Shown: positions 1 to 64,000 of the stretch, one piece after another | How positions within the stretch are numbered: the first letter of the stretch is position 1 | Layout of the letters: every line of letters begins with the position of its first letter | Assembly (NCBI GenBank): GCA_964016885.1 | Contig: OZ024740.1 | Coordinates: 132,618,001 to 132,682,000, forward strand | Direction of reading: 5' to 3' | Origin: Eledone cirrhosa | Taxonomy: Eukaryota | DNA: 64,000 nt | Translations under genes and position numbers: made by a program | Notes under the pieces: generated by a model | What the model was told of the DNA's origin: nothing | What the model saw: the letters and a program-made list of their open reading frames with translations, nothing else | The model's database searches: none

Positions 1-3000
1 TCCCAGGCATTTCATCGCTTTAAGGGCCATATACCTCAGGTTGGTGCGAACAACGGCTAAAAAAAGTCGTTGGGACACGTAAATAAAGAGAACGTTAGGG
101 TGAACAAACAAAATGGTTTAGGCAACAGAAAGTGAGAAGAAAGAGACAAGTCCCAGATTTCTATGAATATAAACTCGATAAAACCGTGAACTAGAGAATA
201 AAGACCATCAGACCTGGTTGAAATGTGAGCAAGGAAGGAATTTCGCACAGGTCTAACGGGAGGAAGAAGAAGGGGTCTGGTCTGCGAATTCGGTAAACAT
301 AAGTTCTGTGAAGACGCAGACGAGAGAGAGAGAGAAAAAAAAGTTCATACCGGCTTGGCCAAGAGTGCGCGAGAAAGGAAATCGGACAGGTCAAGCGGGA
401 AGAAAGAGGAGAGGAGGAGAGGCAGTGACAGGGTATGAGTGAGTGAAAGTTGAGGAAGAGGCTAACAGAGAGAGAGAGACTGCTAGAAAGGGTAAAGATA
501 CAAAGAACGAAACAGACGGGTGGCAGCAGAGGAAAAAATATGTGTAAATATGATAATAATGGAGCTGCGGCGTTGCAAATGGGATACATATGAAAAAGTG
601 AGTCCTTCATCAGTGACCCTCCAACCGTCCCAGGCATTTCATCGCTTTAAGGGCCATATACCTCAGGTTGGTGCGAACAACGGCTAAAAAAAGTCGTTGG
701 GAAACGTAAATAAAGAGAACGTTAGGGTGAACAAACAAAATGGTTTAGGCAACAGAAAGTGAGAAGAAAGAGACAAGTCCCAGATTTCTATGAATATAAA
801 CTCGATAAAACCGTGAACTAGAGAATAAAGACCATCAGACCTGGTTGAAATGTGAGCAAGGAAGGAATTTCGCACAGGTCTAACGGGGGGGAAGAAGAAG
901 GGGTCTGGTCTGCGAATTCGGTAAACATAAGTCTGTGAAGACGCAGACGAGAGAGAAAGAGAGAAAAAAAATGTCATACCGGCTTGGCCAAGAGTGCGCG
1001 AGAAAGGAAATCGGACAGGTCAAGCGGGAAGAAAGAGGAGAGGAGGAGAGGCAGTGACAGGGTATGAGTGAGTGAAAGTTGAGGAAGAGGCTAACAGAGA
1101 GAGAGAGACTGCTAGAAAGGGTAAAGATACAAAGAACGAAACAGACGGGTGGCAGCAGAGGAAAAAATATGTGTAAATATGATAATAATGGAGCTGCGGC
1201 GTTGCAAATGGGATACATATGAAAAAGTGAGTCCTTCATCAGTGACCCTCCAACCGTCCCAGGCATTTCATCGCTTTAAGGGCCATATACCTCAGGTTGG
1301 TGCGAACAACGGCTAAAAAAAGTCGTTGGGACACGTAAATAAAGAGAACGTTAGGGTGAACAAACAAAATGGTTTAGGCAACAGAAAGTGAGAAGAAAGA
1401 GACAAGTCCCAGATTTCTATGAATATAAACTCGATAAAACCGTGAACTAGAGAATAAAGACCATCAGACCTGGTTGAAATGTGAGCAAGGAAGGAATTTC
1501 GCACAGGTCTAACGGGGGGGAATAAGAAGGGGTCTGGTCTGCGAATTCGGTAAACATAAGTTCTGTGAAGACGCAGACGAGAGAGAGAAAAAAAATTTCA
1601 TACCGGCTTGGCCAAGAGTGCGCGAGAAAGGAAATCGGACAGGTCAAGCGGGAAGAAAGAGGAGAGGAGGAGAGGCAGCGACAGGGTATGAGTGAGTGAA
1701 AGTTGAGGAAGAGGCTAACAGAGAGAGAGAGTCTGCTAGAAAGGGTAAAGATACAAAGAACGAAACAGACGGGTGGCAGCAGAGGAAAAAAATATGTGTA
1801 AATATGATAATAATGGAGCTGCGGCGTTGCAAATGGGATACATATGAAAAAGTGAGTCCTTCATCAGTGACCCTCCAACCGTCCCAGGCATTTCATCGCT
1901 TTAAGGGCCATATACCTCAGGTTGGTGCGAACAACGGCTAAAAAAAGTCGTTGGGACACGTAAATAAAGAGAACGTTAGGGTGAACAAACAAAATGGTTT
2001 AGGCAACAGAAAGTGAGAAGAAAGAGACAAGTCCCAGATTTCTATGAATATAAACTCGATAAAACCGTGAACTAGAGAATAAAGACCATCAGACCTGGTT
2101 GAAATGTGAGCAAGGAAGGAATTTCGCACAGGTCTAACGGGGGGGGGGAGAAGAAGGGGTCTGGTCTGCGAATTCGGTAAACATAAGTTCTGTGAAGACG
2201 CAGACGAGAGAGAGAGAGAAAAAAAAGTTCACACCGGCTTGGCCAAGAGTGCGCGAGAAAGGAAATCGGACAGGTCAAGCGGGAAGAAAGAGGAGAGGAG
2301 GAGAGGCAGTGACAGGGTATGAGTGAGTGAAAGTTGAGGAAGAGGCTAACAGAGAGAGAGAGACTGCTAGAAAGGGTAAAGATACAAAGAACGAAACAGA
2401 CGGGTGGCAGCAGAGGAAAAAATATGTGTAAATATGATAATAATGGAGCTGCGGCGTTGCAAATGGGATACATATGAAAAAGTGAGTCCTTCATCAGTGA
2501 CCCTCCAACCGTCCCAGGCATTTCATCGCTTTAAGTGCCATATACCTCAGGTTGGTGCGAACAACGGCTAAAAAAAGTCGTTGGGAAACGTAAATAAAGA
2601 GAACGTTAGGGTGAACAAACAAAATGGTTTAGGCAACAGAAAGTGAGAAGAAAGAGACAAGTCCCAGATTTCTATGAATATAAACTCGATGAAACCGTGA
2701 ACTAGAGAATAAAGACCATCAGACCTGGTTGAAATGTGAGCAAGGAAGGAATTTCGCACAGGTCTAACGGGGGGGGGGGGAGAAGAAGGGGTCTGGTCTG
2801 CGAATTCGGTAAACATAAGTTCTGTGAAGACGCAGACGAGAGAGAGAAAAAAAAGTTCATACCGGCTTGGCCAAGAGTGCGCGAGAAAGGAAATCGGACA
2901 GGTCATGCGGGAAGAAAGAGGAGAGGAGGAGAGGCAGTGACAGGGTATGAGTGAGTAAAAGTTGAGGAAGAGGCTAACAGAGAGAGAGAGACTGCTAGAA

Positions 3001-4326
3001 AGGGTAAAGATACAAAGAACGAAACAGACGGGTGGCAGCAGAGGAAAAAATATGTGTAAATATGATAATAATGGAGCTGCGGCGTTGCAAATGGGATACA
3101 TATGAAAAAGTGAGTCCTTCATCAGTGACCCTCCAACCGTCCCAGGCATTTCATCGCTTTAAGGGCCATATACCTCAGGTTGGTGCGAACAACGGCTAAA
3201 AAAAGTCGTTGGGAAACGTAAATAAAGAGAACGTTAGGGTGAACAAACAAAATGGTTTAGGCAACAGAAAGTGAGAAGAAAGAGACAAGTCCCAGATTTC
3301 TATGAATATAAACTCGATAAAACCGTGAACTAGAGAATAAAGACCATCAGACCTGGTTGAAATGTGAGCAAGGAAGGAATTTCGCACAGGTCTAACGGGG
3401 GGGGGGGGAGAAGAAGGGGTCTGGTCTGCGAATTCGGTAAACATAAGTTCTGTGAAGACGCAGACGAGAGAGAGAGAGAAAAAAAATTTCATACCGGCCT
3501 GGCCAAGAGTGCGCGAGAAAGGAAATCGGACAGGTCAAGCGGGAAGAAAGAGGAGAGGAGGAGAGGCAGTGACAGGGTATGAGTGAGTGAAAGTTGAGGA
3601 AGAGGCTAACAGAGAGAGAGAGAGACTGCTAGAAAGGGTAAAGATACAAAGAACGAAACAGACGGGTGGCAGCAGAGGAAAAAATATGTGTAAATATGAT
3701 AATAATGGAGCTGCGGCGTTGCAAATGGGATACATATGAAAAAGTGAGTCCTTCATCAGTGACCCTCCAACCGTCCCAGGCATTTCATCGCTTTAAGGGC
3801 CATATACCTCACGTTGGTGCGAACAACGGCTAAAAAAAGTCGTTGGGACACGTAAATAAAGCGAACGTTAGGGTGAACAAACAAAATGGTTTAGGCAACA
3901 GAAAGTGAGAAGAAAGAGACAAGTCCCAGATTTCTATGAATATAAACTCGATAAAACCGTGAACTAGAGAATAAAGACCATCAGACCTGGTTGAAATGTG
4001 AGCAAGGAAGGAATTTCGCACAGGTCTAACGGGGGGGGGGGGGAAGAAGGGGTCTGGTCTGCGAATTCGGTAAACATAAGTTCTGTGAAGACGCAGACGA
4101 GAGAGAGAGAGAGAAAAAAAAGTTCATACCGGCTTGGCCAAGAGTGCGCCAGAAAGGAAATCGGACAGGTCAAGCGGGAAGAAAGAGGAGAGGAGGAGAG
4201 GCAGTGACAGGGTATGAGTGAGTGAAGGTTGAGGAAGAGGCTAACAGAGAGAGAGAGACTGCTAGAAAGGGTAAAGATACAAAGAACGAAACAGACGGGT
4301 GGCAGCAGAGGAAAAAATATGTGTAA
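1..4326 (-). repeat. Tandem array (about 7 units, 625-634 bp) of a non-coding structured element, subfamily A; runs off the window start
   Basis: TCCCAGGCAT recurs at 1, 628, 1257, 1882, 2512, 3140 and 3774. Units are nearly identical and differ mostly in G/GA/A run lengths. Strand is assigned from the CTGATGA core on the minus strand. Confidence 0.97.
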
Positions 4327-5595
4327 GTATCCCATTTGCAACGCCGCAGCTTTTTTAGCCGTTGTTCGCACCAACCTGAGGTATATGGCCCTTAAAGCGA
4401 TGAAATGCCTTGGACTGTTGGAGGGTCACTGATGAAGGACTCACTTTTTCATATGTATCCCATTTGCAACGCCGCAGCTCCATTATTATCATATTTACAC
4501 ATATTTTTTCCTCTGCTGCCACCCTTCTGTTTTGTTCTTTGTATCTTTACCCTTTCTAGCAGTCTCTCTCTCTCTGTTAGCCTCTTCCTCAACTTTCACT
4601 CACTCATACCCAGTCACTGCCTCTCCTCCTCTCCTCTTTCTTCCCGCTTGACCTGTCCGATTTCCTTTCTCGCGCACTCTTGGCCAAGCCGGTATGAAAT
4701 TTTTTTTCTCTCTCCCTCTCGTCTGCGTCTTCACAGAACTTATGTTTACCGAATTCGCAGACCAGACCCCTTCTTCTTCCCCCCCGTTAGACATGTGCGA
4801 AATTCCTTCCTTGCTCACATTTCAACAAGGTCTGATGGTCTTTATTCTCTAGTTCACGGTTTTATCGAGTTTATATTCATAGAAATCTGGGACTTGTCTC
4901 TTTCTTCTCACTTTCTGTTGCCTAAACCATTTTGTTTGTTCACCCTAACGTTCTCTTTATTTACGTGTCCCAACGACTTTTTTTAGCCGTTGTTCGCACC
5001 AACCTGAGGTATATGGCCCTTAAAGCGATGAAATGCCTGGGACGGTTGGAGGGTCACTGATGAAGGACTCACTTTTTCATATGTATCCCATTTGCAACGC
5101 CGCAGCTCCATTATTATCATATTTACACATATTTTTTCCTCTGCTGCCACCCGTCTGTTTCGTTCTTTGTATCTTTACCCTTTCTAGCAGTATCTCTCTC
5201 TCTGTTAGCCTCTTCCTCAACTTTCACTCACTCATACTCTGTCACTGCCTCTCCTCCTCTCCTCCTTCTTCCCGCTTGACCTGTCCGATTTCCTTTCTCG
5301 CGCACTCTTGGCCAAGCCGGTATGAAATTTTTTTTCTCTCTCTCTCTCTCGTCTGCGTCTTCACATAACTTATGTTTACCGAATTCGCAGACCAGACCCC
5401 TTCTTCTTCCCTCCCGTTAGACCTGTGCGAAATTCCTTCCTTGCTCACATTTCAACCAGGTCTGATGGTCTTTATTCTCTAGTTCACGGTTTTATCGAGT
5501 TTATATTCATAGAAATCTGGGACGGTTGGAGGGTCACTGATGAAGGACTCACTTTTTCATATGTATCCCATTTGCAACGCCGCAGCTCCATTATT

Positions 5596-5597
<2 letters not shown>
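4327..5597 (+). repeat. Inverted continuation (about 2 units, rearranged) of the subfamily A array, ending in (TA)n
   Basis: Reverse complement of the 628-bp unit, with junctions at about 4326, 4351 and 5520. Confidence 0.95.
5007..5063 (+). ncRNA. Candidate permuted hammerhead ribozyme (representative copy; also 4379-4435 +, and minus-strand copies at about 607-663, 1236-1292, 1861-1917, 2491-2547, 3119-3175, 3753-3809)
   Basis: AGGTA-T-A|TGGCCCT-taaagcgat-GAA-A-TGCCT...AGGGTCA-CTGATGA. Stems III (6 bp) and I (7 bp) are in exact register with the core; stem II is only about 1 bp. Confidence 0.55.
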
Positions 5598-5655
<58 letters not shown>

Positions 5656-7477: not shown

Positions 7478-8810
7478 TTATAGCCCTAGTCTACCCCCCG
7501 GGTCATTATGGGGTTTGAGGGCGAGGTAAGTCCTACGCAATCTGTGTTTACATACAGTAACCAGTTCATCATTCTTGTTTAGGAGTTGGTCCGTCGAAAA
7601 CAGCATTTGTAAAGTTTCCTCCGAGCATAAATTGCACGGACGGCGTCCTCTCGTGTAAGAGTTGGCTCTGTACAGTAAGCTCCAAGTGAGATCATAGGTA
7701 ATGTTGTTATCCTTGAGGTCCCATGTGGCCCAAAAGTGTAGTGGCGTGACGCCGGGCCAGGTTTCGGAAGGTATGTCTGTGTTGGTATAGCCGGGTCTTG
7801 AAGTCACATGCAGTTAATCCTATATAAGCTTTGTTGGAGGTGTCCGTCCTGACGTTGCACTGGTAGATCACATTACGATCTCTACATCTGTTGTTGAGGG
7901 GGCAAATGGATCCACCAGAACAGTTGCACCTCCTGGTCGGCTCTCCACTGCTATTTAGGTTATTTCTTCCATAAGGGTTGAGTTTTTGTTGTTAGAGGAG
8001 ACGATGTTTTGTGCAAGGTTTGGTGTGGTGCTGTAAGAGAGTTTAATGGTATTTTTGTTAATTATGTTGTGGTAGCGGTGTTGTAGTGGGAAGTGTTTTT
8101 CAATGAGCCTAAATAAGATTTTCCCGATAGGAGTTGTCACCTCGGCGTTGTGGGGAGGATTGAACCATGTTACATTGCGTGAGCGGCGGTTTCGCCTGCT
8201 GGTTCTGCTAATGGAAGCTCGACAGAGGGATATTTCCTCCCGGAAAACACTCCGCTTGAGGGCATGGTTGTAATAAGGCGCATGTTCTTCGAATATCTGT
8301 TCATTAGCTGACATACGGGATATGCGGAGGGAGATGTTTTTAACCAGGTTATTGGTGATGTTCCTAGGATGGTTTGACCGGCGGTGGATGTAGTGCAGGT
8401 TGTCGTTAGGTTTCCTGTATGGGTAGTACAGATCATTATCGAGGTCAAGGGTAACGTCCAGGAAGTTTACTCGGGTCAGGGACGTTTATAGTGTTATTTT
8501 AAATCCCCAGTCGCGGAAGAAGCTGATTAATTGTTTACGGACCCGATCTGTACTACTGGGGTTGTACCCTTTAAGGGTAAGGAGCCCATCATCTCGGTAC
8601 AATCCACCGCCGAATGCAGGAAACATATCGGTGAGTTTGGTTTAGGAATAATCCTATAAGATCTGTGACCTCAGCCGAATCCGTCGCGTCCATGCTGACG
8701 TCGAAGGGTGAGTCGGGAGCTCTCTTTATCCATTTGGAGTTGTCGAAGAGTAAGACTGTCTTCCTGGCGTGGAGGATGATGTTTCTTTCCTGGTCGGTGA
8801 TGGAACTACC
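7478..8810 (-). pseudogene. Frameshifted PLE RT/GIY-YIG ORF
   Basis: ORF pieces 8589-8825, 7955-8314 and 7478-7807, plus manual translation of 7800-7960. Confidence 0.85.
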
Positions 8811-10340
8811 CCCCCCCCCCCACATACATACACACTTGTCACTCGCCCCTTCAAATATACTATAATTATATTCAATTCCCTTTTACGCTCCTTTCTATTG
8901 TATAATACAGTATGTTGATTATGATTTTATGCTCCTTCATATACTCATACATTTCTTTTTTCTGTCCCCATTGGCCTACCATAACTCTATTTGATGTCTG
9001 TTTTATTAGATAACGTTATTCAACTGATAGTTGAATATTTCATTTTTTCCAGATATATTTTTATATTTTTATAGTGATATTTTTAATTTCGGGGATTTTG
9101 ATTACTTAAACCATAGCTAATTTTGTATGGACTTATTATGTATTTTAAGTACTTTCAATATTAATTAATTTAATAGGGTTTTCTAGTCATTTATCCGGGT
9201 TTGTTTCCAAAAAAATATTTTAGTGAACTGTATGCGACACCTAAGTAAATACTTTTGCTTTTGTTTTTCGATTTCCGGTTGATTTTATTTATTTATTTAT
9301 ACATACTACCGTGTGTAGTCTTTCCGTCTGGCTCTTATCCACTTACTCACAAATGTCTCTCCACCACCATGTAATTATGTATATTATACTATGTTCAATA
9401 TTTTATATTGAAGTTGTATATCATTCCACCATTTGTAAATGTACTATTGATCCTTATTATTTACCGATTATTGAATGTACCATTATATTATGTTAAATTC
9501 CGTAAATCCTGTAATATGTTTATATTTTTATAATTTTTGTAACGGTTGGTTAATATTTATTTACACCAACTGTATAGAAATTTGATCCCCATCTATTTTC
9601 TTGTAATGGTGTTGATATTTTTCCAACATAATTTTTCCAATATAATTTAGTACTGTAAAATGTTTTTTTCTCCCCCTGTCTGTAACTCTATATGATTTGT
9701 TAAGTTATATGCCACTATATTATAATATTCTTATATTGTAACATTTATATTGTTTGTGCAAATTAACCGGAGATTATCTATTATATTATTATATAATTAT
9801 ATAGTTTATTATTATATATTTGTATGCTTACTTTTAATCATTTATTCTTCATTTTATACTGTAAATAATAGATGTATTATATTTTTATTTTTATTTTTTA
9901 TTTTTATTTCTATTTGTATTATTATTATTTTTATTTTTATTTGTTATTATTATTCTTATTTATATTTAAACTCTTAATAAGGGTTAGTTTGTGCTTCTAC
10001 TGATGGAAATGCGTATTGATATATATGTATATGCGTGTATATGTATATATATGTGTATATTGGGCCTTTTAACATTATTATTATTATCATTAGCAATTAT
10101 ATTATATTATATTATATTATATATAGTACAATAATACCCGCTATATATCACCACCTCTGTTTTAGCTCTAGTTTTTACATTGGACTATATTTGTAATATG
10201 GTTTAAAATGTTACTTACTTCCTTAGCAATTTTTACTTGATCATTTTTTATTTTTTATTTTCCCAAGCTTTAATCTATGTACACTCCATATACTTCTGAG
10301 TTTTCGGCTTGTATTGGCTGATAGTGCTTCTTATAGATTT

Positions 10341-10386
10341 AATTGCCCTGATGAGTCCTTAATAGGACGAAACATTGTTGGCTAAT
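10341..10386 (+). ncRNA. Minimal type I hammerhead ribozyme (PLE-type)
   Basis: gcc-CTGATGA-GTCCT-taat-AGGAC-GAAAC-att-GTT-ggc, followed by AATAAA and then (TA)n. Confidence 0.85.
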
Positions 10387-33164: not shown

Positions 33165-33580
33165 TTACTATCTACTCTTCCCCCTCTTTCTTCCTCTCAC
33201 TTTCACCCTCTCCTTTTCACTCAAGCCCTCACTGACTGCAACCTCATTGTTTCCCTCCCCTGACCTTCTAGCAGTCCTTTTCTCACACTCGCTTGGGTCA
33301 ATCCTATCTTTTCCTTCGATCACACGCTCTTGAACTTAAGTTCTGTTACCGCTGTGGTCTTGGATTCTATTGCCTTCAATTGCTTACATATTCTTCGGTT
33401 TGTTTTTGTTTTTCCTGTTTTCTCTTTCCTTTCCCATTTCCCTTCTATTTTCCTTCTCTCCCTCTTCCGTTTTCCTAATAACTTACCCAGTTATTAAACG
33501 CTATGGGGGTAGATATACTGTATTTAAAGCGTTGAAATATCCGAGACCCCTAGCGACAACTGATGAGGAAAATATCGCCC
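33165..33580 (+). mobile_element. Solo divergent (subfamily C) copy of the ~630-bp structured element, in (TA)n
   Basis: Shares GAACTTA.GTTC, CCTTC..TTGCTTACAT, TAAAGCG.TGAAAT and CTGATGA in the same order and spacing as the arrays. Confidence 0.7.
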
Positions 33581-34125: not shown

Positions 34126-34170
34126 GCCTTGATAAGTCCCACCATGGGGTCGGACGAAACGGCTGTCGGA
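34126..34170 (+). ncRNA. Type I hammerhead with mutated core
   Basis: cc-tTGATaA-GTCC..GGAC-GAAAC-ggct-GTC-gg followed by AATAAA. Confidence 0.65.
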
Positions 34171-45211: not shown

Positions 45212-46174
45212 ATGGACTGCATGCAGGAAAAATGGGAAAAATGTGAAATCAGGAGTCAGCGAAACTGGTCGAAGATTGAACTAGCGGTTTTGATCAAGGG
45301 GTGGACTATGGCTGATGGGTCTTCACCAAGCAAAAAGATGGCGGAGAACCTGAAGAGCCATGGGTTTATGAGGACCCTGGTACAGATAGAGAGAAAGAGA
45401 AAAGAAATTGAGAAGGCGTATGTCCTCATAGCGCCTCATATGGCGATGCTAAGCCGTGTCCTCAGGGAGGAGAAAACCGAAGGGAGGGATGAGGAGAAGG
45501 AGAGGGAAAAGGAAGAGGAAAAGGAAAGGGAAAAAGAAAAGGAGGAGAGCACAAGCACGGACCTGAAAGAAAATGATATACCCTCCGCTACAGGCAGGGA
45601 GGGCAGGCCGGGCAACCAACAAGCTAAGGGCAAAGGTGAAAAGCGAAATCACCTTCCGAAGGAGAACCAAGCGCAGAGGGACCAGTGGACAACTGTTCAA
45701 AGAAAGAACAGAAAGCACCGAGACACTGGGAGCAAAAAACACCAAGTAATGTGCAAGTTTTTCAAGAACGGGACATGCTGGTATGGAGAGACAGGGATGG
45801 GATGCAGATTCGCCCACCCTAGGTCTCAAACGAACTATGCCCATCATACTCGCGCAACATGCCCCAGCCAAAGCCGAAATAAGCCGCTCCAGAAGTATGC
45901 TGATGTCGCGCGTGCTGCACCAACAAGGAGAAGGCACGCACATGCCGACGAGATACAGATGGCAGCAGCAGATCAGAAAAATTTTTTAGTGATGGCCGAG
46001 AAGATTGTGGGACAGCTGACCTGGCTGCATCGTCTCCAGAGCCAGGGTCATCCACACCAGCACTCGAGACCACCGCAGTTAAGGGACCCAGAGTGGCCGC
46101 CGCTGACACCAGACCAGGTGTCATACCGACAGCCATTACTGGCACCCCAAAAGTCACACCAGTGCTGCTGCTGA
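45212..46174 (+). CDS. LINE ORF1 (Myb/SANT-like N-terminus, E/K-rich coiled coil, CCCH zinc finger)
   Basis: 320-aa ORF; WSKIELAVLIKGW..MAENL...GFMRT..QI and CKFFKNGTCWYG..CRFAHP. Confidence 0.8.
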   Translation: MDCMQEKWEKCEIRSQRNWSKIELAVLIKGWTMADGSSPSKKMAENLKSHGFMRTLVQIERKRKEIEKAYVLIAPHMAMLSRVLREEKTEGRDEEKEREKEEEKEREKEKEESTSTDLKENDIPSATGREGRPGNQQAKGKGEKRNHLPKENQAQRDQWTTVQRKNRKHRDTGSKKHQVMCKFFKNGTCWYGETGMGCRFAHPRSQTNYAHHTRATCPSQSRNKPLQKYADVARAAPTRRRHAHADEIQMAAADQKNFLVMAEKIVGQLTWLHRLQSQGHPHQHSRPPQLRDPEWPPLTPDQVSYRQPLLAPQKSHQCCC

Positions 46175-49134
46175 ATGTCAGGGGCCTGGTGAAACTCAGC
46201 AACATGAGTAAAATTTCCTACCTGGGAGACTTAGCCATAAGCAATCAAGCACTATGCATGGCACTAACCGAAACGCACCTGACAAGCAGTATAGCAGATG
46301 CAGAAATACATATACCGAAATATACTGTATTTCGTTCGGACAGGAAGGAGAGAACTCATGGTGGGGTTGCTCTGTATATCCGTGAAGATGTCACACCAAT
46401 TGTTCTGTTGACACATTCAAACTCAGTCTGTGACACACTGATAATACATATGAAGCAACTACAGACGGTAATATGTGTCACATATCGGCCGCCCGATGCC
46501 CCCAGTCATGAGGGTAAATTTGAGGATAGCCTAAGTAGGATAGAAGAGGTCCTTGACAAACTGGACCAGGGTCTCAACATCCTACTGCTGGGAGACTTCA
46601 ACCTACCAAAGGTCAAATGGCCTGAGGGCCACCTCCTCCCTGGAATGACGTCAATAGAACAGAGACAGACGGAATCCCTGCTGGCCCTCACACACAGGCT
46701 GTTCATGGAGCAAGCAATACTCCTCCCAACAAGAGGCGAAAATGTCCTGGACCTCTGTTTTACAAACAACGAAGTGCTCATCCACAATGTAAAGGTGACA
46801 CCAACAATTCTCTCGGATCATAACTTGGTAGAGCTAATGATATGTGGTCCAAGAGAACCAACAGAGACAAAACCACCAAGAAGCTCCGGGACGCTATCCA
46901 GCCTTAACTTCTACGGGGCTGACTGGAAGAAGATTAAGAGTGAAATCCGGAAGCAAACATGGAGTGCAAACATCGCCACACAAGACACTAACACACAATT
47001 TCAACACTTCATGACAACGATACACACCATATGCAAAAAGTGTGTCCCGGAGAAAGAGGCAAACAGACACAAAAATCTTATTCCCAGAGATAGGAAAATC
47101 CTTATGAGACGTAGAACTAAACTCTCAAACCAGTTGAATAGTCAACAAAACCAAAACAAGAAGGAATCCTATTTGAAACGTGCACTACTTGACACCGAGA
47201 TTGCACTCAAGCTTTCACATGAGAATGAGAGGGCAAGGAAAGAGAACAGGGCCATAGAAAACATTAAAACAAACCCTAAGGCCTTCTTTAAATTTGCAAA
47301 AGAAACTGCCTCAGTACACTGCAAGATTGGACCACTCTTCCACACGGACGGTTCATTAACCGAAAATCCCCAAGAGATATGTGAAATACTGAATGAACAG
47401 TACAAAAGTGTCTTCACATGTCCACTGAGGCACATGCAAATAACGAAGCCAGAGGAGTTCTTTGATGCCACAACACTACATCAAGAAATGGCAACCATCA
47501 ACCACATAGACATAACGGAGGAGGATGTGGTGTACGCCATTGATGAAATTAGAACAGACTCGGCTGCTGGACCTGATGGATTCCCAGCAGTTCTCCTAAA
47601 AATATGTAAGCGGGCCTTAGCAACTCCACTGAAGATGCTCTTCAGAAGCTCCTTGGCTAGCGGTGTACTACCCAGGGAGCTGAAAGAAGGCACAATATGC
47701 CCTATCCATAAAGGAGGTAGTAGAGCGGAGGCCAAGAACTATAGGCCAGTCTCCCTGACGTAGCATATCAGTAAGGTCATGGAGCGAGTCGTCAGAAAGA
47801 AACTAATCACTTTCCTCGAAGAAAATGACCGCCTGACTAGCACGCAACATGGCTTCCGCCCAGGAAGAAGCTGCCTTACACAGCTGCTACATCACTACGA
47901 CTGGGTACTGAGACAGCTACTAGACAGCTCACATGTAGACGTGATATATCTTGACTTTGCGAAGGCCTTTGACAAGGTCGACCACGGAATGATATGTCAC
48001 AAACTACACGGACTCGGCATAACTGGAAAAGTAGGTGAGTGGCTGCATGGCTTCCTGAGGGACAGAAGCCAGGCAGTCGCAGCAAATGGGGCTCTCTCGA
48101 GGGAAACACCGATAACAAGTGGGGTGCCTCAGGGGACAGTCCTGGGACCACTACTGTTTTTGGTGGCTCTCTCGGACATGCCCTCTGTGGTGCATGCAAC
48201 AACATCCCTCACTAGCTATGCTGATGACACTAAGGTAGCACAGGCAATCAAAAACCCGGCTGACACTGCCCTCTTACAGCAGGATCTGGATGCCATATAC
48301 AGATGGGCGGAAGAAAACAACATGCAGTTTAATGCTGGCAAATTCCAAGCCCTACAATACAAACCTGCAAACACAAACACAAATATAGCGGAACACAGCT
48401 ACACAGGACCAGGAGGGACCGATATCCCCGTGTCAAAATCGATACGAGACCTGGGCATAGACATGAGCGATGATGCATCTTTTTCTTCACACATCATGAA
48501 GGTGGCGACAGCATGTAGACGATTCGCTGGCTGGATCTTGAGGACTTTCCTTACAAGAGATCGAGACACCATGTTGACACTGTGGAGGACTTTTGTCCTA
48601 AGCCGCCTGGACTACTGCTCCCAGCTGTGGTCACCCCATAGTGTCAAACTAACCACAGAGCTTGAGGCAATCCAGCGAAGCTACACCAAGAGGATTGCCA
48701 AGATGAGGGAGACAAGCTACTGGGAGAGGCTGAAGGAACTGAACCTCTACTCCTTGGAGCGAAGACGGGAGAGATACGCAGTGATCTACATGTGGAAAAT
48801 CCTGGAGGGACTAGCACCAAACTTTGGCATTGGGAGCTGGACCAACCGTCGAACAGGACGTCACTGTGTGGTGCCAAAGGTCCCGTCTTCCACATCTAGA
48901 ATAAGGAGCAGGTATTGCAATAGCCTGGGATTCAAGGGCCCTCAACTCTTCAACAGGCTGCCGAGGCATCTGCGAGACTTGCATGACGTGGAGGTGGATG
49001 TCTTTAAGAAACATCTCGACACCTTGTTATCCAGGATCCCGGATGAGCCCACAGCAAGACATGAGGGAAACCTAAGGGCAGCAGCAACAAACTCCCTCCT
49101 ACACCAGTGGCCAACCTATACAGGCTGGAGATAA
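46093..49134 (+). CDS. LINE ORF2: APE endonuclease + reverse transcriptase, interrupted by one in-frame TAG at 47761-47763
   Basis: NVRGL, LTETHL, GGVALY, YRPP, GDFN, LDL, SDH; [43 protein letters not shown]. Confidence 0.93.
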
Positions 49135-49212: not shown

Positions 49213-51300
<2,088 letters not shown>

Positions 51301-62896: not shown

Positions 62897-64000
62897 GAAT
62901 AACGTTAGTCCTTCATCAGTGATCTTCCAACCATCATTGGTATTTCATCGCTTTAAAGACAATATAACTCCGGTTGGTGCGAGCAACGGCTAAAAAAAGT
63001 CGTTGGGACACGTGAATAAAGGGAACACGAGTGTAAACAAACATAAATGGTGAAGCAACGAAAAATGAGGAAGAAGGAGTCAAGTCCCAAATTTCTATGA
63101 ATTTAAATTCGGTGAAATAGTAAACGAGAGAGAATAAAGAGCATCAAACCTGGTTGGAATGTAAGCAAGGAAGGAATTCCGTACAGGTCTAACGGGGGGA
63201 AGAAGGAATCTAGTCTGTGATTACGGTGAACGTAAGTTCTGTGAAATCGTAGACGAGAGAGAGAAAAAAAGCGACCTGCCAGACCAAGGTTGCGAAAGAA
63301 AAGAATTACGCACGGGTCAAACGGCAAGAAGGAGGAGGAGGAGAGGTAGTAAGAGAGAATGAGTGAGTGAAGGGTGAGGAAGCGGCTAACAGAGAGAGTG
63401 AATGCTAGAGAGGGTAAGGATACAGAGAAAGAGGAAGCAGTAAGAACAAAATAGAAGTGTAACAGCGGGGAAAAAAATATGTGTAAATATGAGAAAAACG
63501 TGCTGCGGGTTTAGTAATGGATTACATATTAAGAAAGTTAGTCCTTCATCAGTGATCTTCCAATCATCATTGGTATTTCATCGCTTTAAAGAACATATAC
63601 CTCCGGTTGGTGCAAGCAACAGCTAAATAAAGTCGTTGGGACACGTAAATAAAGGGAACACGAGTGTAAACAAACAAAAATGGTGAAGCAACGAAAAGTG
63701 AAGAAGAAGGAGTCAAGTCCCAAATTTCTATGAATTTAAATTCGGTGAAATCGTGAACGAGAGAGAATAAAGACCATCAAACCTGGTTGGAATGTAAGCA
63801 AGGAAGGAATTCCGTACAGGTCTAACGGGAGGAAGAAGGGATCTAGTCTGTGATTTCGGTGAACGTAAGTTCTGTGAAATCATAGACGAGAGAGAGAAAA
63901 AAAGCGATCTGCCAGACCAAGGGTGCGACAGAAAAGTATTACGCACAGGTCAAACGGGAAGAAAAAGGAGGAGGAGCGGTAGTAACAGAGAATGAGTGAG
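62897..64000 (-). repeat. Tandem array (~633-bp unit, subfamily B) of the structured element; starts in (TA)n and runs off the window end
   Basis: GTCCTTCATCAGTGA at 62908 and 63541; collinear with, but clearly diverged from, the 1-4326 unit. Confidence 0.93.

Follow-up and report, generated by a model that had tools for sequence, protein, structure and literature searches.

A covarying outer helix, tied to stem III by a predicted kink-turn, in a re-ordered hammerhead ribozyme of an Eledone cirrhosa tandem repeat

The outer helix next to stem III, designated P4, is a conserved and covarying element of a re-ordered hammerhead ribozyme that is encoded in a non-coding tandem repeat of about 630 bp. 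The repeat was found in a stretch of 64,000 nucleotides of Eledone cirrhosa DNA, in the following called the window. P4 probably acts as a brace and not as a switch. Stem III and P4 would be connected by a predicted kink-turn (k-turn) that bends P4 backwards, the unit's own AGGGUCA-CUGAUGA strand and its upstream stem II strand would reach its own loop, and the RNA would be cut in cis on the 3' side of A5013. Like retrozymes and Penelope-like elements (PLEs), the repeat would thereby have its multimeric transcripts resolved into single units. Folding of the k-turn, closure in cis, cleavage and the role in cutting multimers are inferred, and the reaction may be slow, or it may be controlled by Mg2+ or by a k-turn-binding protein.

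The ribozyme motif is present once per unit of the repeat, which encodes no protein in the window. A pattern running from the GAAA block to CUGANGA matched at least 8,337 times in the genome, compared to 3 matches for the reversed control. The inverted arm of the repeat continues past the edge of the window with 14 further copies and one copy spanning the edge, adding up to 21. The 3' ends of the repeat lie at +73 and +119 from the site, i.e., they differ by a tail of 46 nt. Upstream of the 3' end, at a distance of 73 or 119 nt, the ribozyme is retained uncut in the genomic copies. These ends, the inverted 5' copies and the (TA)n flanks match Penelope-like elements (PMC8557442; PMC11167929; bioRxiv 10.64898/2026.07.22.740005; all as excerpts). 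In particular, like the Naiads the repeat targets (TA)n, has inverted 5' copies and ends at two 3' positions separated by 46 nt (PMC8557442, excerpt), and the combination that is typical for Naiads, namely, tandem and inverted copies, a tail of 30-40 bp and a microsatellite target, was found here with a tail of 46 nt. Two narrow patterns for an autonomous Naiad partner yielded nothing above the control in the genome; the Naiad reverse transcriptase (RT) motif had 8 matches versus 12 in the control. The inverted arm and the plus-strand arm meet at a junction at 4330/4351, and an internal jump at 5511/5512 leads into a truncated ribozyme copy within one insertion; both junctions suggest template switches during reverse transcription.

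For the analysis of the ribozyme, 77 distinct copies with a spacing of 23 nt between GAAA and CUGA were collected from the window and the loci L001-L083. In register were 63 of them, while 14 were dropped because they were truncated or out of register, and 24 copies picked for diversity were used for covariation. Four helices are supported, namely, stem I, a stem III of 5 bp, P4, and a stem II with its 5' strand upstream of P4. In the 24 copies 96.4% of the cells are paired, compared to 34-49% in slid controls, and 12 of the 22 pairs have two-sided changes, which represent few independent events because they are inherited by subfamily. Stem II has just one two-sided change, from U-A to A-U in subfamily C, and its upstream helix was recovered as conserved in an all-against-all scan of the subfamily majorities. 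The strand order according to covariation is thus II-5', P4-5', III-5', site, I-5', II-3', GAAA, III-3', P4-3', I-3', and CUGAUGA. After CUGAUGA a single base can pair, A10.1 (A5064) with U11.1 (5029), and bases past 5064 do not form stem II, as the downstream positions 3 and 4 are paired in only 2 and 1 of 63 copies, respectively. The stem II of the window's subfamily is weak (4 bp, -3.6 kcal/mol). The stems covary around a CUGANGA, a GAAA and a U16.1 that hardly vary, and together with NUH and stems I-III the hammerhead core is complete. Rfam had no match at the gathering threshold over the window, which is expected for a hammerhead with re-ordered strands. The features are compiled in Table 1.

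Table 1. Positions of the ribozyme elements and of the repeat copies in the window
Feature	Positions	Strand	Remarks
Stem II 5' strand TCGC	4994..4997	+	pairs with GCGA 5025-5028; 58-63 of 63 copies paired per position
P4 5' strand CCAACC	4999..5004	+	NC arm of the k-turn; links stem I with stem II at their tips
Predicted k-turn, non-bulged strand U3n, G2n, A1n	5005..5007	+	conservation
Stem III 5' strand GGUAU	5008..5012	+	C helix of the k-turn; ends in U16.1; 59-63 of 63 copies paired
Predicted cleavage site AUA/UGG, A17 = 5013	5013..5014	+	placed as in other hammerheads
Stem I 5' strand UGGCCCU	5014..5020	+	two-sided changes in 4 of 7 pairs
Stem II 3' strand GCGAU, GAAA core (5030-5033), stem III 3' strand AUGCC	5025..5037	+	alignment, folding
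Predicted k-turn, bulged strand L1-L3 UGG, G1b, A2b, C3b	5038..5043	+	conservation
P4 3' strand GGUUGG	5044..5049	+	covariation
Stem I 3' strand AGGGUCA, CUGAUGA core (5057-5063), A10.1 at 5064	5050..5064	+	alignment, folding
Plus-strand repeat arm	4351..5600	+	ribozyme copies at CUGAUGA 4429 and 5057; truncated copy at 5537; (TA)n end
Inverted arm, tandem units of about 630 bp	1..4330	-	copies at 613, 1242, 1867, 2497, 3125, 3759
Two tandem subfamily B copies	62901..63627	-	CUGAUGA at 62919 and 63552
Decayed subfamily C copy	33497..33566	+	family comparison

A preceding sequence-only reading of the window had paired CCAACC with GGTTGG and had described a hairpin, the loop of which displays the cleavage site, the stem-I arm and GAA. 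Both are borne out: RNAfold forms the hairpin, each P4 pair is formed in 57-62 of the 63 copies, and five of its six pairs have two-sided changes. With the linker sizes given here, 720 of 100,000 shuffles contained a 6-bp helix without any mismatch. It is also correct that no linker separates P4 from the stem-I/CUGAUGA strand, as AGGGTCACTGATGA at 5050-5063 directly follows GGTTGG. The RNAfold pair probability is about 0.95-1.0 for stem III, except for its first pair (0.53), and for P4 it is 0.3-0.67 in windows of 81-251 nt and about 0.14 in the whole unit of 666 nt. The proposal that the outer stem extends stem III holds insofar as both form one hairpin, but it is not a plain extension, as the internal loop at 5005-5007/5038-5043 fits the k-turn consensus. 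An allegedly solitary copy with an equivalent outer stem of differing sequence turned out to be a decayed member of the large subfamily C, which has 1,511 first-look candidates and more than one copy in 5 of 30 loci. This copy has a P4 of differing sequence, as was claimed (CTGGGG/CCCCAG in the family), but the CGCTA/TAGCG pairing that had been assigned to it is private and overlaps the strands of stem II and stem I, and its own stem I is damaged.

The internal loop has the sequence of a standard k-turn, i.e., a 3-nt bulge followed by G1b.A1n and A2b.G2n, between a C helix and an NC helix. G1b is found in 61, A2b in 62 and A1n in 61 of the 63 copies, and -1b:-1n is C:G in 62 of 63 per position, while L1-L3 and 3b are variable. 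Position 2n is G in 39 of 40 copies of the subfamilies A, B, B2 and D, U in all 23 copies of subfamily C, and A in the unrelated family H described below; A.U at 2b.2n, as in subfamily C, has a precedent in Kt-23 (PMC2790904, excerpt). By definition k-turns have an angle of 50 degrees, and those with 3b=C or 3n=G fold well (PMC8191799, excerpt). The bulge, the G.A and A.G pairs and the C:G at -1b:-1n are common to the Kt-7 consensus, the Kt-23 variants and the window, and 3b=C or 3n=G is found in subfamilies A and B. By these rules good folding is predicted for A and B, and poor folding with ions alone for C, in which 3b:3n is a Watson-Crick pair. In contrast to the known k-turns, the kink of about 50 degrees, in Mg2+ or with L7Ae, is predicted here from the sequence.

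The arrangement around P4 is very similar to that of the type-SGC hammerheads HRIMA-1 and its variant, which were described from a metatranscriptome, while the window copy resides in an animal genome. The block order (site, GAAA, CUGANGA) is the same, and stems I and II are bridged by a helix on their free sides, as P4 starts 0-1 nt after the stem II strand and ends 0-1 nt before the stem I strand. In the alignment of HRIMA-1 and the SGC ribozymes the joining helix begins one base after stem II, three bases lie between stem I and stem II, and the helix enters stem I with zero linker in most rows, and also in CSG-1 (PMC10085705, excerpt). The top junction of the window, with 0, 1 and 3-4 nt, equals that of the SGC ribozymes, and P4 corresponds to the I-II joining helix. 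The difference is that block C is broken: the 5' strand of stem II is located upstream instead of directly after CUGAUGA, and both strands of the joining helix continue into stem III by way of the predicted k-turn. According to the covariation, the window form has the wiring of an SGC circle with an opening between A9/10.1 and stem II, in which both P4 strands are connected to stem III. A break between CUGANGA and stem II had been assumed to be impossible by Eckert et al. (2023), and a direct link between the I-II helix and stem III was regarded as not obviously compatible with the hammerhead structure (PMC10085705, excerpts). The replacement of helix II by a strand from elsewhere, above the 10.1-11.1 pair, is also known from the pseudoknot-containing hammerhead, which differs by its pistol-like connectivity and for which the passages available mention no k-turn (PMC11300833, excerpt).

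This comparison bears directly on the proposal that P4 is an inhibitory switch, which would have to melt and leave an active fold of stem I, stem III and a stem II of 1 bp, with a protein or a neighboring sequence opening P4. The hairpin of P4 and stem III is indeed more stable than stem I alone in nested folding (-12.6 versus -7.5 kcal/mol), and P4 has a pair probability of only about 0.14 when the whole unit is folded. However, P4 overlaps no core strand, and it sits at the place of the joining helix that is required for the activity of SGC-3, as has been shown by disruption and rescue (PMC10085705, excerpt). In addition, the k-turn signature requires P4 to be formed, and the upstream strand of stem II is conserved and supplies the G10.1-C11.1 pair in family H and in Naiads. 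A conformational switch, as it was postulated in the sequence-only reading, is thus hardly probable.

Another possibility is that the structure is a relic or a protein-binding scaffold, the k-turn being bound by a protein of the L7Ae family or by the reverse transcriptase of the element, and that it has no useful cleavage rate in these copies. The 5' ends of the genomic copies do not pile up sharply at the site. Their density is about 8 per position at -13..-6 (65), about 22 at -4..+8 (132 and 358; among the first 100 entries of the 358, 17 were no true truncations by eye), and about 14 at +18..+31 (240). The step of 2-3-fold across the site, for which the first 100 entries of the lists were classified by eye, is confounded by (TA)n microhomology and is not taken as support for cleavage. 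Furthermore, the insertion of an anole Penelope element in vitro did not require ribozyme cleavage (PMC11167929, excerpt). In contrast, the near-invariance of CUGANGA, GAAA and U16.1 next to covarying stems, across several unrelated families, makes this explanation quite improbable.

The alternative of greater weight is that a second unit is needed. It had been argued that, owing to the zero linker after P4, the catalytic strand probably cannot reach its own loop. A zero linker is, however, ordinary in SGC ribozymes, and SGC and CSG-1 constructs with it cleave during transcription (PMC10085705, excerpt). These data do not prove cleavage in cis, because the main text of Eckert et al. has no test of RNA concentration dependence, and it also has no match for "k-turn" or "kink" (PMC10085705, excerpt). 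The question was therefore addressed with a coarse model of rigid helices, in which ideal A-form helices, an idealized core, 7 Å per unpaired base and simple sterics were used, stem II was stacked on stem III, and stem I was kept within 50 degrees of stem II, as taken from PMC4209133 (excerpt). Controls with the kink alone and with long links closed in 12 of 40 and 17 of 40 runs, respectively. A kinked monomer with the zero linker as its only link closed without strain, at 51-54 degrees, in 25 of 90 runs, and thus in the model the AGGGUCA-CUGAUGA strand is delivered in cis. When only the 1-nt link between stem II and P4 was kept, 0 of 90 runs closed. In the model this link resists closure in cis, so that a second unit may still be needed, for a reason other than the one that had been given.

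None of 200 runs yielded a closed monomer when the k-turn was kept together with the four helices (best residual 27-33). A looser kink gave residuals of 16-19 for this monomer; those of subfamily C were 60-96 and those of family H 27-34, and strain persisted in the monomer when it was loosened or partly frayed. A scan of helix lengths likewise yielded no closed kinked monomer (0 of 720), with the natural lengths near the least-strained end. The reciprocal dimer with all helices and the k-turn was below the threshold in 2 of 136 runs (residual 0-1.4), with P4 nearly stacked on stem I (14-35 degrees apart in the best window solutions). The full fold therefore closed solely as a dimer, and the choice between monomer and multimer raised by the sequence-only reading is a real question. 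A dimer without the kink also closed (2 of 20), and so did the monomer in 7 of 72 runs when its loop was kept open. Of the tested SGC ribozymes, SGC-1 closed in 2 and SGC-2 in 5 of 72 runs. SGC-5 closed in 0 of 72 runs and in 6 of 72 after two pairs had been opened. The model cannot decide between one unit and two, because it lacks a positive control for a k-turned monomer, brings the monomer to within a few angstroms of closure, and leaves more freedom to the dimer; in addition, the two-unit sampling is under-converged (the open pair that must close reached 5.4).

In the dimer, P4 would be stacked on stem I, the base of the hairpin, where P4 clamps the upstream stem II strand beside the stem-I/CUGAUGA strand, would dock on a partner unit's loop, and two k-turns would close a reciprocal pair. 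Both sites would be cut in tandem transcripts, while monomer circles would be spared. Besides the exclusive closure of the dimer with all helices and the k-turn and the limiting 1-nt link, several points are in favor of this arrangement. The zero linker suits coaxial stacking, which in the pseudoknot hammerhead is found between the equivalent of stem II and the helix above it (PMC11300833, excerpt). In those rows of HRIMA-1 that have no linker between stem III and the I-helix, the length of the I-helix differs greatly by eye, and a single cis geometry could hardly accommodate all of them (PMC10085705, excerpt). Penelope-like hammerheads commonly act as dimers, and dimer dependence is known for some PLE and non-LTR retrozyme hammerheads, including those of axolotl retrozymes (PMC4209133; PMC7229834; both as excerpts). 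The persistence of the uncut ribozyme in genomic copies also fits. On the other side, the crudeness of the model, the small shortfall of the monomer and the dispensability of the kink for the dimer weaken the argument, coral retrozymes that are efficient as monomers form arrays of up to 62-mers and circles (PMC7229834, excerpt), so that tandem arrays do not discriminate, and family H, which ends an RT-encoding element, has a single full-length match in most of its loci.

The precedents differ from the window form in their architecture. Dimeric minimal PLE and non-LTR retrozyme hammerheads also occur once per non-coding tandem unit of a few hundred bases (PMC4209133; PMC7229834; bioRxiv 10.64898/2026.07.22.740005; all as excerpts), but they are of type I, and their short palindromic stem III (1-2 bp in the minimal PLE form) is swapped from copy to copy. 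The window form has a stable stem III of 5 bp and the order S-G-C, unlike the minimal PLE hammerheads and the type I ribozymes of non-LTR retrozymes, and any swap would involve the strands of stem I and stem II instead of stem III.

Taking the model and the comparisons together, we give cis cleavage of the monomer even chances, since the conserved kink and the arm lengths would be explained by a fold-back and would be unneeded for a donor strand 630 nt away. The requirement for a second unit has less than an even chance, its weight coming from the full fold, which closed only as a dimer, and from the frequent dimerization of PLE hammerheads. All other explanations together are improbable. A more far-reaching and rather doubtful idea is a natural hammerhead that counts copies: each unit would form a k-turned rod that carries the substrate loop and, at the opposite end, an enzyme fork clamped by P4, only the reciprocal dimer with two kink-turns would be active, and loop-to-base or loop-to-loop docking would also operate in the published type-SGC and CSG ribozymes, which are assumed to act in cis, and in hidden Naiad hammerheads.

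An experiment with two pieces of RNA, which had been suggested earlier, would not discriminate between one unit and two, because a hammerhead assembles from pieces under the monomer and the dimer model alike. Furthermore, the proposed hairpin piece (4995-5049) clips the stem II strand TCGC at 4994-4997.

The wiring of the window is not restricted to this repeat. A pattern search identified two unrelated families with it, H and E. Family H has the k-turn motif with an NC arm of 8-9 layers, and in this family the strand for the G10.1-C11.1 pair is available only from upstream, as the base after the core is a T opposite C11.1. In Naiad consensi G10.1-C11.1 likewise comes from an upstream strand (by eye). 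The upstream stem II thus gains separate support from family H. The element that family H ends encodes an RT (RVT_1, E 5e-14, and a weak zf-RVT). Family H ribozymes lie just after the last ORF fragment of a broken RT element of about 3.6 kb, at positions 724 and 4323 of locus L134 (G000:C2:317450300-317455300) and in locus L135. A C-terminal stretch of the element resembles a restriction-like endonuclease. The host looks like a non-Penelope LINE, so that the k-turned wiring would be located at a LINE 3' end, in tandem there. A four-way top junction was considered for family H and rejected, as the GGGTC that lies one base upstream of P4 serves as the stem II strand. Family E, known from four or five copies (by eye; L084-L087, L103), has a k-turn motif with an extra hairpin on the non-bulged strand, resembling a k-junction, in which a hairpin is inserted on that strand (PMC10573300, excerpt). 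At position 17 family E has a U, otherwise the wiring is that of the window (by eye). Three further repeated pattern matches look like coincidences in coding sequences (by eye).

Naiads were reported to have no canonical hammerhead, and eight half cores ("HHR_half_core") were listed (Craig et al., 2021; PMC8557442, excerpt). By eye, and in supplement snippets in which some matches may be hidden, Naiad_Obim, Naiad_Ovul and about four other consensi have the wiring of the window, and about six others are of type CSG. Naiad_Obim and Naiad_Ovul carry the k-turn motif (by eye), while the other Naiad consensi are without it. One of these has a stem III of 10 bp, a 1-nt bulge and a P4 of 5 bp; it closed in 0 of 72 runs, and in 9 of 72 after two pairs had been opened, and for this reason the notion that it excludes cis cleavage was dropped. 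The approximately six CSG-type consensi have a long I-helix and a long stem III, i.e., two hairpins whose loops must kiss (supplement snippets); type CSG was previously known from two metagenomic sequences. A hairpin, CAACGAC...GCCGTTG, lies just 5' of the stem II strand (4969-4991), and similar ones precede the ribozyme in Naiad_Obim and family H.

The window contains further elements. Ordinary type-I-like hammerhead motifs of other repeats are located at about 10340-10375 (+), 51031 (+), 50628 (-) and about 34130-34170 (+), those at 50628 and 51031 being an inverted pair. An open frame of 176 aa at 7958-8485 (-) resembles by eye a fragment of a Penelope-like (Hydra-type) RT and had no match in Pfam, as was the case for all three RT-like fragments that were searched. 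Two long open frames (619 and 456 aa) at 45904-49131 (+) belong to a LINE-like endonuclease/RT element.

In the literature searched, i.e., outside of subscription journals and bioRxiv supplements, neither the wiring described here nor a natural hammerhead with a k-turn had been reported, and for Naiads there was no report of permuted hammerheads. Whether one unit or two are needed, the wiring separates CUGANGA from stem II, against an assumption of the permutation scheme, and a hammerhead wiring that uses a predicted kink-turn is present in thousands of animal repeats that standard descriptors have missed. If cleavage occurs in cis, the k-turn would be a natural solution to the puzzle of Eckert et al. 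about the linkage of the I-II helix and stem III. If a dimer is required, retroelements would have a second and independent means of restricting cleavage to multimeric transcripts, and the ribozymes of type SGC would need to be re-tested.
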